Virus record (IMG/VR): IMGVR_UViG_3300046011_002684
Location: 26,208 to 90,207 of that record
Strand: one strand, 5' to 3'
DNA length: 64,000 nt
Source: a virus
Shown: piece after piece, positions 32,579 through 36,262 of the stretch
How positions within the stretch are numbered: the stretch's first letter is position 1
Layout: every line of letters begins with the position of its first letter
Position numbers and translations under genes: made by a program
Notes under the pieces: generated by a model
What the model saw: only the letters and a program-made list of their open reading frames with translations
Databases searched by the model: none
What the model was told of the DNA's origin: nothing

Positions 32579-32616
32579 ATTATACCTAGGCGGGAAAGAT
32601 CTGTAAATCCCCTATT
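32579..32616 (-). promoter_or_regulatory. Early sigma70-like promoter
   Basis: AATAGGGGA-TTTACA-N17-TATAAT. Confidence 0.75.
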
Positions 32617-33058
32617 TTGCGAGAGGATTATCTAGTGCTTCTTGCAGAGCTTGTTTCATATCTTTCTCAAGAGTCCTCATAGTATCACGAACATCCTTTT
32701 CGGTTTCCCGATTTAGATTTTCCATGATGCGAAGGCGATCATCGATGTCACGCTGAGTCTCTTTTACTCTGCGTGATGCATCTTCTGATACACCTTCTAC
32801 TCTTAGAATATCCTTACGAAGATCATCTTTGATGTCTCTGGTATAGTCGATTGCGTCTTCTAGTTTCTGCAGCTGCAGTTCATTTGCCGCTTGTATTGCA
32901 GTAATATCGATATTCTGGATAATCTCCTTCATATCCATATAGTCTTTATAAAACTCAAAGCCGCCCCAGAGAGCACCGCCAGCGGTAGATAGTGCGGTAA
33001 GGATGATCATCATCTTACCGCCTCGAAATGTCATGCCAGCGAATTCAAACTCTGCCAT
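32612..33058 (-). CDS. TM plus coiled-coil protein
   Basis: N-terminal hydrophobic IILTALSTAGGALWGG; long heptad region. Confidence 0.7.
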   Translation of the reverse strand: MAEFEFAGMTFRGGKMMIILTALSTAGGALWGGFEFYKDYMDMKEIIQNIDITAIQAANELQLQKLEDAIDYTRDIKDDLRKDILRVEGVSEDASRRVKETQRDIDDRLRIMENLNRETEKDVRDTMRTLEKDMKQALQEALDNPLAK

Positions 33059-33066
33059 TTATTCAC

Positions 33067-33465
33067 TCACTCTTCTGAATCGCTTTTACCTTTAAGGTAA
33101 GCCTGTGCACCAAAGAAGGCAGCAACTAAACCAGCGATAGCTACGAAGTAAGTCGGAGCAATATCACCAATGATCTGTGCAGCACCTTCAATTGCAAAGA
33201 AACTTGTTACCAAGATAAGGACCGGGTAAAGAAGCATACCCCAAAGAGCAAACCATGCCATTTGGCGGATCTGGTCTTCTTTCTTATCTTCATTCTCGAG
33301 CATTCTTTTCTTATGTTCGAAATCCGAAACTTCTCTTGCTCTTGCCATCTCATCATCAGTGATGATACCATCACCATCTGTATCGAGGAAATTATATGCC
33401 GAGTCTTTTTCTAAAGCCTTTGCTTCTACTTTTGGTGTTCTTGTTCTAGGCGTTCTTGCAGCCAT
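33067..33465 (-). CDS. EF-hand plus two-TM membrane protein (holin-like topology)
   Basis: DTDGDGIITDDE EF-hand loop; two C-terminal TM helices. Confidence 0.6.
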   Translation of the reverse strand: MAARTPRTRTPKVEAKALEKDSAYNFLDTDGDGIITDDEMARAREVSDFEHKKRMLENEDKKEDQIRQMAWFALWGMLLYPVLILVTSFFAIEGAAQIIGDIAPTYFVAIAGLVAAFFGAQAYLKGKSDSEE

Positions 33466-33516
33466 TATCTTCTCCTATAGTTGTATTATACCATAAAGCA
33501 GATCAAGGCAGCATAA

Positions 33517-33900
33517 TTAGTTTTCAAATTGCAGTTCACGAAGTTGCTGAAGCTCTTGTTCTAGCTTCTGGACTTCAAGTTGTTTCTTTCTTAGTTCCAG
33601 TTCATAAAGCTTGTTACAATCAATTCTGGACTTTACTCTTTTACCAAGCGGTATAACGATTCTACTATACACACCCACGTCACCGATTTGATTACCCATA
33701 TCCTTATCGATAATACCGGTAACACCAAACTCTAACTGAGTGGCAGATCCAATCGCATTTGAGCAATCTAAATCCCCCGCTCGAAACTGGTCCGACTGAT
33801 AATTCATAGAGGACCCAGGAATAGCTAAGTTCAGGGAAGAACTTGTATCAGCTAATGCAGGTAATCCCATCAAAATGAATAAAACAGCATAATATTTCAT
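33517..33900 (-). CDS. Secreted protein with Cys-flanked beta-hairpin and coiled coil
   Basis: Signal peptide ending PALA; DC...LEFGVTG...GVYSRIVIPLG...DC; C-terminal coiled coil. Confidence 0.65.
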   Translation of the reverse strand: MKYYAVLFILMGLPALADTSSSLNLAIPGSSMNYQSDQFRAGDLDCSNAIGSATQLEFGVTGIIDKDMGNQIGDVGVYSRIVIPLGKRVKSRIDCNKLYELELRKKQLEVQKLEQELQQLRELQFEN

Positions 33901-33906
33901 TTCGCC

Positions 33907-34287
33907 TCACTTTTTTATTTTTGAGCAAATCTTCGATGATATACCCGAAGCCCCTATATTTTCTTTTACTAGTTTCGATAATGTACAGATATAAACTACA
34001 CTATCCTTATCTTTATCCCTAATATATACATCAAACGTTTTTGTTTCAAGATAACCTACCCTTAAAACTCTTTCAGGTGTTGCGAACTTAATTGGTTCCC
34101 ATTCACCAGAAAAAACACCAATCTCGTAATGCTCTGCATCATTTCTTCTATTATATAACGAAAGAGTGGTTACCATTATACCATCTACATACGACGGATC
34201 TAATTTTGGATACGTCGGGATCATCTCGTGTGCGCTACCGATAGATGGCAGCGCACACATTAGAGTTACACATAACAACCTTTTCAT
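33907..34287 (-). CDS. Secreted protein, pilus-chaperone-like Ig fold (putative)
   Basis: Signal peptide; P.YP, LSLYN....EHYEI.V, F.VYI, YICT.S...SKICSK. Confidence 0.45.
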   Translation of the reverse strand: MKRLLCVTLMCALPSIGSAHEMIPTYPKLDPSYVDGIMVTTLSLYNRRNDAEHYEIGVFSGEWEPIKFATPERVLRVGYLETKTFDVYIRDKDKDSVVYICTLSKLVKENIGASGISSKICSKIKK

Positions 34288-34288
34288 C

Positions 34289-34789
34289 TTATTTAGCGAT
34301 GCATTCGGCTGTTACGAGAGCGGTATAGTTACCACCAGGTAGCGGCTTATTGTAACCATATGCAGCTTCCGAAGTAACTTTGAACCAAACAGTTCCAGCT
34401 TCTGTTAAATTGAATTCAACCACGTTATCGTATTCTACTTTATTTGTTTCATAAGCTGACATAGCTGGAGCAGTTACTTCTGCTACTTCTACATCGCCTG
34501 ACCAGTTTACAACGTCGGATAGACTTGGACTTGTCGAGAAGCTATTTGGCCAAGTAACTTTTGCCAGATAAGAATCTGCAAGTGCAACATCATAACGGAT
34601 CTTAGGCATTACACCACCGTCTGCTGGTACAGTACTGAGTACGTCTGGGGTTGGCTGACCATATACACCACGTACATCGGTGTATATAGAGCATTTTGAT
34701 TCGACTCTACCGTTGATCGGTGTTTCTATAGCAACAGCGGAGGTTGCAATAGCCGAAAAACCGAGAGCCACTAAAGTCTTCTTGAACAT
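34289..34789 (-). CDS. Secreted fimbrial-subunit-like protein (putative)
   Basis: MFKKTLVA signal; I.G.V...C N-terminal strand; C-terminal PGGNYTALVTAEC like the G.Y...T terminal strand of chaperone-usher pilins. Confidence 0.5.
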   Translation of the reverse strand: MFKKTLVALGFSAIATSAVAIETPINGRVESKCSIYTDVRGVYGQPTPDVLSTVPADGGVMPKIRYDVALADSYLAKVTWPNSFSTSPSLSDVVNWSGDVEVAEVTAPAMSAYETNKVEYDNVVEFNLTEAGTVWFKVTSEAAYGYNKPLPGGNYTALVTAECIAK

Positions 34790-34804
34790 TTTAGTCCCCT
34801 TGTT

Positions 34805-35698
34805 TTAATTTCCATCATATTGCAACCTAACCATATCATTATGGGTTTGATCAGAGGCTAGGCTTCTCAATAAGCTTGTGTTATCAGGGATTTCACTATC
34901 TTCTAATGTTAACGTCTCTTCGTAAGTGCCACCCTGAATAACAACACTATAGTATGAATCTAATTTAGGAAGAGCTGCAAGGGCTTTTAACATCGCTTCT
35001 TGCTGGGCAACATCGGCAATCTCTTCGGCCGCACCACTGATTGATAGAGCAGCTTCGATATCCAATTCCTCTTCTGACTCTTCTTCTTCCTTTATTTCTT
35101 TCTTTTCTACTTCTTCTCCTAGCGGATATTCTCTTTCTAACTGGGCTTGAACCCATTCGTTATAATACGGATCGTTTATATTCTCTCTATTCAATAATCC
35201 ATTATCTAACAAGTATTTATATAATGCATCTAAATAACCTGGACAGGCTGGGTCAGTAATCGGGTTATAACAAGTGTCGTACTTGTAATTATAGATCACT
35301 GTTACGTTACTTAGTGTCCCATCCCCGTCTACCCCAATCTCACCGTTCCCGAGCGCCTCGCGCGGGATCGGTAGCACTGGATCATATCTAACCATTGTGT
35401 TACCGGGTAATCCATCCCACACATCATTCGATTCATAAGAATACCCTTCACCAAGTGCATTCTCGTTACGAACATATACTGTAGCATCTGAGTTCGGATC
35501 TTTCTGAATCGTATAGCGGCGAAGAACACCATTCACAGCTAATCCAGCTTGTAGGGGAAGAACATCACCCATATTCCAGGTGTACCCATTAACTGTAGCG
35601 TTACCGGTTTGACCTACAATAACCTCAGAGGAGGAGTAAGAGGCCCAACAGAGCGCCGATACCAAGACCACCTTTGGCAGTACTCTTGTCGTCTTCAT
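34805..35698 (-). CDS. Secreted protein with Cys motif and acidic region
   Basis: Signal-like N-terminus; TCYNP..DPACPGY; poly-Glu stretch. Confidence 0.65.
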   Translation of the reverse strand: MKTTRVLPKVVLVSALCWASYSSSEVIVGQTGNATVNGYTWNMGDVLPLQAGLAVNGVLRRYTIQKDPNSDATVYVRNENALGEGYSYESNDVWDGLPGNTMVRYDPVLPIPREALGNGEIGVDGDGTLSNVTVIYNYKYDTCYNPITDPACPGYLDALYKYLLDNGLLNRENINDPYYNEWVQAQLEREYPLGEEVEKKEIKEEEESEEELDIEAALSISGAAEEIADVAQQEAMLKALAALPKLDSYYSVVIQGGTYEETLTLEDSEIPDNTSLLRSLASDQTHNDMVRLQYDGN

Positions 35699-36203
35699 CC
35701 ATATTCTTCCATCTGCTGCGGAGACCGTTCCCCTTGGGTTTATTTTCTTCCTCCATCGTCCAAGCTGCTTTTGCTTCTTCCCCGATCATACCATCATAAG
35801 GACAAGGGGTTCCAGCGTTCATCATAGCTTCGAACACACCAGGATCTTGGCACATAGTTGAAACTGCAGCAACTTTCATACCCATGTCATATAGCGTCTT
35901 AGCATTTTTTAAACGCTCACAGTTAACATCTCTGACAGTCTTACCTGCAGAGAGACCGAGGATTTGGGTTTGAACTGCACCAGCTACACCAACCGTACAA
36001 CTATCAGTAGTAGAACTATTAATCGTTGGTGCAACCGCAGTAGATGGTGGGGAATATACTGTGGTGGTAGAATTAGAATCTACTGTGGAATCAGTTTCGG
36101 ATCTGGTACAAATATAACCTTCAGGACAAGTCGTAGAAGATTCTTGCGCTGAAACTGATCCAGCAAATAAGCATAAAGTTATAACTAATAATTTTCTAAA
36201 CAT
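35625..36203 (-). CDS. Secreted Cys-rich protein with C-terminal GG-TM anchor
   Basis: Signal peptide ending SVSA; SC..G..GAVQT..LGLS.G....DVNCERLK; ends GGLGIGALLGLLLLL. Confidence 0.7.
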   Translation of the reverse strand: MFRKLLVITLCLFAGSVSAQESSTTCPEGYICTRSETDSTVDSNSTTTVYSPPSTAVAPTINSSTTDSCTVGVAGAVQTQILGLSAGKTVRDVNCERLKNAKTLYDMGMKVAAVSTMCQDPGVFEAMMNAGTPCPYDGMIGEEAKAAWTMEEENKPKGNGLRSRWKNMDEDDKSTAKGGLGIGALLGLLLLL

Positions 36204-36254
36204 TCTATTATCCTTACAATTCGGTCATAATAAAAAGTTCAGTCGCATCGGGTT

Positions 36255-36262
36255 TATTTATG
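36255..36262 (-). promoter_or_regulatory. Late-promoter-like CATAAATA
   Basis: One mismatch to the T4 late consensus; just after a terminator and ahead of the secreted-protein cluster. Confidence 0.6.

Follow-up and report, generated by a model that had tools for sequence, protein, structure and literature searches.

Donor-strand pili that assemble without an usher, by chaperone-guided or spontaneous strand exchange, include the Pam pilus of bacteria of the candidate phyla radiation (CPR; PMC13278184), the elr pathway of Enterococcus (10.64898/2026.10.17.759780) and archaeal threads. According to PMC7029224 and PMC9599517, SAR11 phages carry curli (type VIII secretion) modules, which encode exported proteins and proposed surface fibers, and in myophages these modules sit in a variable region between replication and structural genes. 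Here, we analyzed a cassette of seven genes in 64,000 nucleotides of viral DNA (hereafter the window), which are positions 26,208 to 90,207 of IMG/VR record IMGVR_UViG_3300046011_002684, a 90,207-base record rated 51% complete. Three of the genes, P3, P4 and P5 (hereafter the trio), encode an immunoglobulin-like (Ig-like) subunit candidate, a chaperone candidate and a candidate outer-membrane anchor or platform. The reading that we favor, and to which we give about an even chance, is that the trio is a chaperone-subunit system of bacterial type that works without an usher and sits within an envelope cassette of the lysis type. A full-text literature search found no publication on this cassette.

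The genes were named P1 to P7 by transcription order, and all lie on the minus strand (Table 1). An initial annotation of the window, made from the letters alone, had described five consecutive exported proteins with paired cysteines (33517-36203) followed by two membrane proteins. We judged export signals by a rule-based check of the lysine and arginine (K/R) count, a 10-residue Kyte-Doolittle window in the first 20 residues, and the residues at -3/-1. The N-termini of P1-P5 have 1-3 K/R each, hydrophobic window means of 2.3-3.0 and small residues at -3/-1, and the neighboring deoxynucleoside monophosphate kinase, taken as a comparison, has a value of 0.84. Among distinct homologues, a value of at least 2.0 was found for 30/30 P1, 32/40 P2, 33/33 P3, 31/32 P4 and 30/31 P5 proteins. 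Each of the five also has invariant cysteines: C69, C95, C118 and C134 in P1, C143/C152 in P2, C33/C163 in P3, C101/C121 in P4 and C46/C95 in P5. Both results agree with the initial description, as do the hydrophobic segments of the two membrane proteins, two in P6 and one in P7.

Further conserved marks were found in the individual proteins. P3 has an invariant G27 and a G153-x-Y155 motif close to its C-terminus, and the mature P4 protein begins with a histidine, H20, which is invariant in the viral set. The alignment of 30 P1 sequences has 43 invariant columns; in P1, a helical domain that holds two disulfide pairs is followed by a glycine-rich hydrophobic C-terminal tail, which is kept in 30/30 distinct homologues and has no basic residues after it. 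P1 and P2 share 74 nt (35625-35698), read at the beginning of P2 in the +1 frame relative to P1, and 37/37 distinct P1-P2 pairs keep such an overlap with a length of 65 nt or more. The same stretch of DNA therefore codes in two frames, once for the hydrophobic P1 tail and once for the P2 signal peptide. Across relatives of P7, the coiled-coil-like region varies in length, and the C-terminus is conserved. The pattern that had been noted in both P1 and P5, a Cys-clamped hairpin followed by a helix, held up, whereas homology between the two proteins was not detectable. Their candidacy as paralogs was rejected, with a BLASTP E value of 2.2 and an hhalign alignment of the signal peptides only (probability 11.7%).

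Pfam gave nothing above threshold for any of P1-P7, the EF-hand matches of P6 being below the cut-off. Matches in PHROGs were only to families of unknown function (P1 to phrog_20531, E 4.5e-14; P5 to phrog_37374; and also P6); P2 had neither a Pfam nor a PHROG match, and P7 had no PHROG match. By these searches, P3-P4-P5 is unnamed in the protein-family libraries.

The AlphaFold2 model of P3 (predicted local distance difference test, pLDDT, 90.1) is a beta-sandwich with one helix, in which residues 21-32 are without secondary structure. A Foldseek comparison of this model with solved structures returned no match below E 0.001. The best rows, from E 2.9e-3 upward (TM by query 0.26-0.48; best pilin E 3.0e-3), were mostly chaperone-usher pilins (FimF/G, CfaB, the PapG pilin domain, CS17, CsuA/B and Caf1), and other matches were to staphylococcal MSCRAMM Ig domains and archaeal strand-exchange fibers. 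A feature-based Atlas lead connected P3 to a cluster of bacterial proteins, 15% of which have an SCPU domain (score 0.94). The P4 model (pLDDT 86.7) is a single seven-stranded Ig-like domain with the PapD-like fold of a subunit-binding domain. Five Foldseek matches (pdb) were below E 0.001, the top one being the F4 fimbrial chaperone FaeE (E 2.8e-4, TM by query 0.56), and further matches included Caf1M (1.7e-3), SfaE (3.3e-3) and FimC (3.7e-3); the non-chaperone PapD-like domains MSP and VAP-A score equally well. For P5, two weak leads pointed to TolC: a sub-threshold OEP match of a relative in Vibrio phage pVp-1 (E 0.065) and the match of a low-confidence Atlas model to a TolC cluster (TM 0.47). 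Single-sequence and profile searches of solved structures with P3, P4 and P5 returned nothing below E 0.1.

It is thus predicted fold only that supports a pilin-like and chaperone-like reading, and it does so more firmly for P4 than for P3. The initial description of P4 as a one-domain protein resembling a pilus chaperone is in line with these results. P3 had been likened to a chaperone-usher pilin; the likeness holds for its Ig-like sandwich and its weak best matches, but not for sequence membership in chaperone-usher families. The proposed absence of an usher was also supported, as the Pfam usher family PF00577 (about 800 amino acids, aa) had 0 matches in the 90-kb, 51% complete contig in a search whose E. 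coli control was positive; the largest open reading frame (ORF) of the cassette has 297 aa. No two-domain chaperone (PapD_N plus PapD_C) was found, since P4, with 126 aa, has one domain and no Pfam match. A reading of the cassette as curli was tried and rejected: CsgG (PF03783) had 0 matches in the contig, and no curli family, CsgF included, was in the Pfam results for the seven proteins.

Homologues of the trio were found in the same order in the T5-like Vibrio phage pVp-1, as gp0077, gp0078 and gp0079. The hhalign probability was 94.4% for P3 versus gp0077 and 95.5% for P4 versus gp0078, and P5 gave tblastn values down to 8e-13. A P4-like protein occurs in 179 phage records, all of Vibrio phages, with genome sizes of about 60, 79, 83 and 111-129 kb (at least four types). 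The carriers in tblastn searches were Vibrio phages only, in 54/54 records in one search and 179/179 in another.

Relatives of the trio are also encoded by bacteria. A scan with a P5 profile, which covered one genome per species, found 8 loci. Five were in metagenome-assembled genomes (MAGs), four of those on contigs shorter than 5 kb, with 51-66% identity to viral proteins, and these five are probably mis-binned viral DNA. The other three lie on long bacterial contigs among housekeeping genes. Photobacterium chitinilyticum has a subunit, a 313-aa two-part subunit, a P4-like and a P5-like protein and then an EAL protein; a Hyphomicrobiales MAG has a subunit, a P4-like and a P5-like protein and then a PilZ protein; and an Allosphingosinicella MAG has the trio by itself. 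A broader P5 profile found relatives in 35/301 sampled genomes of the family of the Photobacterium genome (about one in nine) and in 2/401 genomes of the class of the Allosphingosinicella genome, one of which was the query genome.

We examined 20 bacterial loci (17 added to these three), in 18 of which P5 was called by the ORF picker. Two layouts were seen: subunit, P4, a subunit of about 300 aa, P4 and a long P5 (7 loci), and P4, P5 and three small proteins, two of them with the subunit pattern (9 loci). We defined this pattern as a cysteine near the N-terminus and a cysteine within the last six residues, and it was present in 24/104 same-strand neighbors versus 7/226 other ORFs. One or two such neighbors, some of them two-part forms of about 300 aa, were found at 14/18 loci. 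None of the 6 ORFs of at least 600 aa within 7 kb of the 18 P5 loci is an usher, and Pfam and NCBIfam had no family for the bacterial subunits, the P4-like proteins or the P5 core. The initial idea of a pilus-like apparatus without an usher is therefore strengthened, as the bacterial relatives of the trio form fimbria-like operons without one. A link to c-di-GMP (cyclic di-GMP), considered for the EAL and PilZ neighbors, was dropped as a general feature: a crude motif scan, which did not include PilZ, found it at 1/18 bacterial loci. HMMER with a viral P4 profile did not recover the bacterial P4-like genes (0/3 genomes), and hhalign linked P4 to bacterial P4-like genes with probabilities of 52% and 85%.

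Some bacterial P5 proteins are fused to peptidoglycan-binding domains. The long P5 of one Vibrionaceae locus has an OmpA domain (E 3.5e-21), and a scan of 10 long P5 relatives found OmpA in 2, SPOR in 2 and neither in 6. A search for longer fused forms returned one protein, which had no Pfam domain; the length window of this search began at 288 aa and so missed the OmpA forms of 265-281 aa. Because two unrelated wall-binding domains occur at the coiled-coil end of P5, this end should lie at the peptidoglycan and the hairpin, by elimination, at the outer membrane. The initial annotation had proposed that hairpin subunits form an outer-membrane pore as in CsgG. An outer-membrane role of P5 fits the OmpA and SPOR fusions; the pore is a candidate.

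The cassette is strongly conserved in viruses. A P3 scan of viral contigs gave 50 loci with 51-100% identity, which contain 33 distinct P3 sequences and are not all independent. P2 and P3 are present in 50 loci, P1 in 48, and P4 and P5 each in 47; every locus without one of them stops short of that gene. As far as each locus extends, the order of P1-P5 is identical in all 50. P7 is present in 42/50 loci (the 8 misses end before it) and in many directly follows P5; P6 is present in 18/50, in changing positions. This synteny check bears out the expected co-conservation of the cluster, which is far above chance. Among unannotated gene sets of aquatic phages, the trio is also one of the more common. 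The P3 profile alone matched at least 3442 clusters at 90% identity, the best 120 of which were all without a Pfam domain, and P5 relatives form 484 clusters at 50% identity in a representative search.

We propose the following mechanism. P3, P4 and P5 would be exported by Sec, and P4 would hold the Ig-like subunit P3 in the periplasm, probably via strand complementation. P5, held together by its coiled coil, would form an oligomer whose disulfide-clamped hairpins insert into the outer membrane, and this oligomer would be the platform or anchor, possibly the pore, at which P3 is displayed or polymerized. P1, P2, P6 and P7 would be proteins of the inner membrane or periplasm, similar in kind to those of podophage lysis cassettes and co-expressed with this core. 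Phages may have captured the bacterial system as a one-subunit version, which in T4-like aquatic phages was placed within a lysis-type set. The analysis shows the export signals, the folds, the linkage of the genes, the operons of bacteria and the fusions of P5 to peptidoglycan-binding domains, and from these we infer the P3-P4 complex, the polymerization of P3, the outer-membrane location of P5 and the timing.

Several results weigh against a chaperone-subunit system. The Foldseek scores of P3 are weak (E 2.9e-3 at best), and Ig-like folds are common. Pfam found no chaperone-usher family in the cassette, and P3 matched neither Fimbrial (PF00419) nor SCPU (PF05229) at E values up to 1. The hhalign probabilities against E. 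coli proteins were 0.2% for P4 versus FimC, 0.6% for P3 versus FimA and 0.6% for P5 versus TolC, with templates that were single sequences and thus of low power. P3 has no direct tie to the bacterial subunits in hhalign (0.3% and 0.9%), and the two are tied solely via members from Vibrio phages (BLASTP E 1e-11, 23-sequence set). The RNA evidence given below consists of contigs of relatives, in which carry-over of DNA is possible. Finally, genes like P1, P6 and P7 adjoin endolysin genes in cultured podophages, and the most frequent neighbor of the cassette, at 11/33 distinct loci, is a SleB-like hydrolase with a lipoprotein-type signal, which points to lysis.

The last of these results bear on the strongest rival explanation, namely that the whole cassette is machinery for lysis of the outer membrane. 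P7, anchored in the inner membrane, and P5, anchored in the outer one, would act as a two-part spanin via their coiled coils, P1 would be a one-piece spanin, P6 would be holin-like, and P3 and P4 would be accessories. The central domain of P1, alone, is present in 13 cultured-phage records, from phages of SAR11, roseobacters and Ralstonia. Of the 7 cultured phages whose gene context was read, 4 (HTVC023P, HTVC033P, CRP-207 and CRP-810) have an annotated lysin no more than four genes from the P1-like gene. In HTVC023P, gp48 has the build of P7 and the C-terminus DNPLAQ, and it abuts an M15 endolysin; gp49 of HTVC115P is 40% identical to P7. The P6-like gene of roseophage CRP-207, gp72 (a blastn match), comes right after the lysozyme gene, and the gene beneath the P1 match in CRP-810 carries the annotation of an OmpA family protein. 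P2 had no tblastn relative in cultured phages, and its C-terminus is weakly like HTVC115P gp53, the gene after the P1-like gene (hhalign probability 21%). P1, P6 and P7, and perhaps P2, appear by these matches to be a second gene set, distinct from the trio. Because relatives of P1, P6 and P7 stand beside podophage endolysins, the block appears to be composite and a role in lysis is a serious rival. In T4-like phages, then, the trio sits amid a set of the lysis-cassette type.

The position of P7 after P5 and the frequency of the SleB-like neighbor also fit lysis, as does pVp-1, in which holin and endolysin genes lie about 600 bp downstream of the trio. However, pVp-1 is the only one of the four Vibrio phage lineages read that has such genes close by: in D80 the nearest annotated lysin lies at a distance of 2.6 kb, and 51E28.1 and D81 have none annotated in the vicinity. 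A PseT.2-like gene is, moreover, already annotated in pVp-1. Likewise, HTVC115P, HTVC202P and Mosig (3/7) have no annotated lysin near the P1-like gene, in genomes with sparse annotation. The lipobox cysteine of an outer-membrane spanin (o-spanin) is absent from P1 and P5, as their signal peptides and those of their homologues end in A/G-x-A/S type sites, and no minus-strand ORF of at least 40 aa lies inside or over P7. The build of P7 matches that of an inner-membrane spanin (i-spanin) and its HTVC023P relative abuts an endolysin; in this window, no endolysin abuts P7. Bacterial chromosomes, furthermore, hold the trio with several subunit paralogs and no phage genes. With these results on both sides, we consider lysis by the whole cassette a somewhat unlikely explanation.

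The surroundings of the trio in Vibrio phages suggest a second alternative, in which P3 and P4 are separate periplasmic Ig-like binders that block a phage receptor or uptake route, like the T5 lipoprotein Llp, with P4 perhaps binding metal via its N-terminal histidine and P5 acting as an anchor only. In 4/4 of the lineages read, the P3-P4 pair comes directly after a phrog_10818 protein of about 800-860 aa. In pVp-1, gp0075, the gene before gp0076, also belongs to phrog_10818 and has a collagen-like motif, so that this setting looks tail-fiber-like. The gp0076 proteins of T5-like pVp-1 and the 79-kb phage D71 are 77.7% identical, which suggests recent transfer across lineages and fits joint travel of the pair with a receptor-binding gene. 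Two properties of P4 could also be read in this way, the invariance of H20 in the viral set and the presence of an only-Cu superoxide dismutase at rank 10 of its fold matches. Against this, the P4 relatives of Vibrio phages have a mature start of LTLAP or LTLSP and thus no N-terminal histidine, and the top fold matches of P4 are chaperones. The 2-3 subunit paralogs per bacterial operon suit a polymer better than a single binder, and the cassette of the T4-like phages is not adjacent to tail-fiber genes. We regard separate binders as improbable. In the pVp-1 locus examined, neither gp0075 nor gp0076 (4715-9821) has a signal peptide, and a sequence search of the large pVp-1 proteins against solved structures gave no match.

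That the seven proteins are ordinary virion or assembly parts whose N-terminal hydrophobic stretches are not export signals is very improbable: nothing specific favors it beyond the commonness of Ig-like domains on virions and the place of the Vibrio phage pair after tail-fiber-like genes, whereas signal-like N-termini are kept in all five families, the invariant cysteine pairs suit an oxidizing compartment, homologues lie in bacterial chromosomes far from phage genes, and P5 is fused to peptidoglycan-binding domains.

Returning to a chaperone-subunit system formed by the trio, its most likely benefit to the phage would be exclusion of other phages or protection of progeny, through a P3 structure at the surface or in the periplasm that hides the infected cell or its debris. 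We slightly favor this benefit over lysis because the bacterial operons are fimbria-like and the trio of Vibrio phages travels with a tail-fiber-like gene. An aid to breakage of the outer membrane ranks next because of the podophage company of P1, P6 and P7, the position of P7 after P5 and the SleB-like neighbor. A wider hypothesis, which we hold only tentatively, is that the trio represents an unrecognized usher-independent fiber-assembly pathway of double-membraned bacteria, in which a one-domain PapD-like chaperone passes Ig-like subunits to an outer-membrane oligomer of P5 hairpins. This oligomer would stand in for the usher, with its coiled coil or OmpA or SPOR domains fastening it to the wall, and phages would use a captured one-subunit version to coat the dying host. 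A fiber made without an usher, if true, would extend by one the few assembly routes known for double-membraned bacteria, and phages would alter the surface of their hosts late in infection. Three groups of genes without an assigned function come together in this module, namely those for exported proteins in aquatic T4-like phages, 'hypothetical' ones in cultured Vibrio phages, and unnamed bacterial operons. Culturable systems carry the trio, namely Vibrio phage pVp-1 and its relatives, Photobacterium and other Vibrionaceae.

Table 1. Genes of the cassette and features upstream of it (positions in the window)
Feature	Positions	Strand	Description
P1, 192 aa	35625-36203	minus	ORF; exported; Ser/Thr/Pro-rich N-terminal region; Cys-clamped Gly/Ala-rich hairpin
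P2, 297 aa	34805-35698	minus	Exported; beta-rich N-domain (C143/C152), acidic linker, conserved C-terminal domain
P3, 166 aa	34289-34789	minus	Ig-like, pilin-like subunit; N-terminal extension of ~12 residues
P4, 126 aa	33907-34287	minus	Single-domain PapD-like protein; chaperone candidate
P5, 127 aa	33517-33900	minus	Exported; Cys-clamped amphipathic beta-hairpin; coiled-coil-like C-terminal helix ending QFEN
P6, 132 aa	33067-33465	minus	Membrane protein; hydrophobic segments 74-92 and 102-120; EF-hand-like N-terminal motif
P7, 148 aa	32612-33058	minus	One N-terminal hydrophobic segment; long charged coiled-coil-like region; C-terminus ...LDNPLA
Late-promoter-like motif	36262-36255	minus	CATAAATA, 7/8 match to T4 late-promoter motif, ~52 nt upstream of P1 start
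Terminator-like hairpin	36283-36309		11-pair stem; T run on minus strand; between OMP-like gene and P1
Outer-membrane protein (OMP)-like gene, 109 aa	36332-36661	minus	Exported; C-terminus ...VRFEF; Pfam Phage_OMP sub-threshold, E 0.044
Transfer-messenger RNA (tmRNA) gene	36689-37076	minus	Two-piece, alphaproteobacterial; Rfam alpha_tmRNA 120.7 bits, tmRNA_permuted 124.4 bits
SleB-like cell-wall hydrolase	37680-38246	minus	phrog_938 endolysin, E 2.1e-30; lipoprotein-type signal ...IVGC

The replication and structural genes of the phage are of T4 type by PHROGs, and in DNA polymerase it shares 53% identity with Phage C48C1 and about 47% with cyanomyophages. The type of the tmRNA gene, which sits just upstream of the cluster and for which ARAGORN gave the tag ANDNFAPKAYALAA, hints at an alphaproteobacterial host. 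Near-identical DNA is contained in 17 runs, 16/17 of which are labeled lake water metagenome (2020-2025), and the sole RNA holders of positions 32612-36262 were estuary and aquatic metatranscriptomes, with small shares. As the runs are mostly from lake water, the phage is not simply 'marine'. Altogether, the polymerase, the PHROG genes, the tmRNA and the lake-water runs point to an aquatic T4-like phage, the host of which is probably an alphaproteobacterium.

Upstream of P1, a relative of the OMP-like gene directly precedes the cassette in 9/33 distinct loci, and the SleB-like hydrolase may be the exported endolysin of the phage. The terminator-like hairpin marks the start of a separate transcription unit at P1. 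A late-like promoter had been proposed for this unit: the 7/8 motif is present, but exact copies of TATAAATA are at chance frequency in the window (6 matches versus 6.35 expected) and none is just upstream of P1, so that CATAAATA is weak evidence of timing. Contigs of three metatranscriptome runs from two studies, which are 90-99% alike, span parts of all seven genes and the OMP-like gene; this fits transcription of relatives in nature and is silent on its timing. The OMP-like gene has the top depth figure among the RNA contigs, a measure that cannot rank genes. Positions 31000-32500 and 37500-38500 are without RNA contig coverage; the runs were picked by cassette words, and nothing is concluded from this.

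Among known systems, the usher-less fibers of the Pam, elr and archaeal pathways belong to cells of other envelope types, whereas the trio occurs in proteobacteria and phages and includes an outer-membrane candidate; they are likened here by description only. The curli modules of SAR11 phages are likewise phage-borne sets of exported proteins, although the proteins differ. Tethers between the outer membrane and the peptidoglycan (OmpA, Lpp and Pal) resemble the long P5 proteins, which consist of a membrane part, a linker and an OmpA or SPOR domain, and the coiled coil of P5 is Lpp-like. In contrast, the membrane part of P5 is one hairpin per chain and not an eight-stranded barrel or a lipid anchor, and the phage forms of P5 are without the peptidoglycan-binding domain.

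Spanins (lambda Rz/Rz1, T4 PseT.3/PseT.2 and T1 gp11) are a further comparison. An i-spanin consists of an N-terminal anchor and a periplasmic coiled coil, and P7 is built in this way; T1 gp11 has a signal peptide and a C-terminal anchor, as does P1. The cassette differs from spanins in that P1 and P5 are without a lipobox, P1, P5 and P7 belong to no PHROG spanin family, and bacteria carry the trio without lysis genes.

The chaperone-usher pathway (FaeE-FaeG, Caf1M-Caf1, FimC-FimA and CsuC-CsuA/B) likewise uses Sec-exported parts, and P4 has the PapD-like fold. P3 is like the pilins of this pathway in its Ig-like fold, its N-terminal extension, a conserved glycine 14 residues from the C-terminus and the alternating hydrophobic residues of the last strand. 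The cysteine pair of P4 is on its last two strands, and chaperones of the Caf1M type carry a similar disulfide. The differences are that the described pathway has an usher and a two-domain chaperone, where the cassette has no usher and a one-domain P4, and that neither Pfam nor profile comparison linked the cassette to PapD_N, Fimbrial or SCPU. The place of the outer-membrane component is taken in this cassette by P5, a small protein with a hairpin and a coiled coil.

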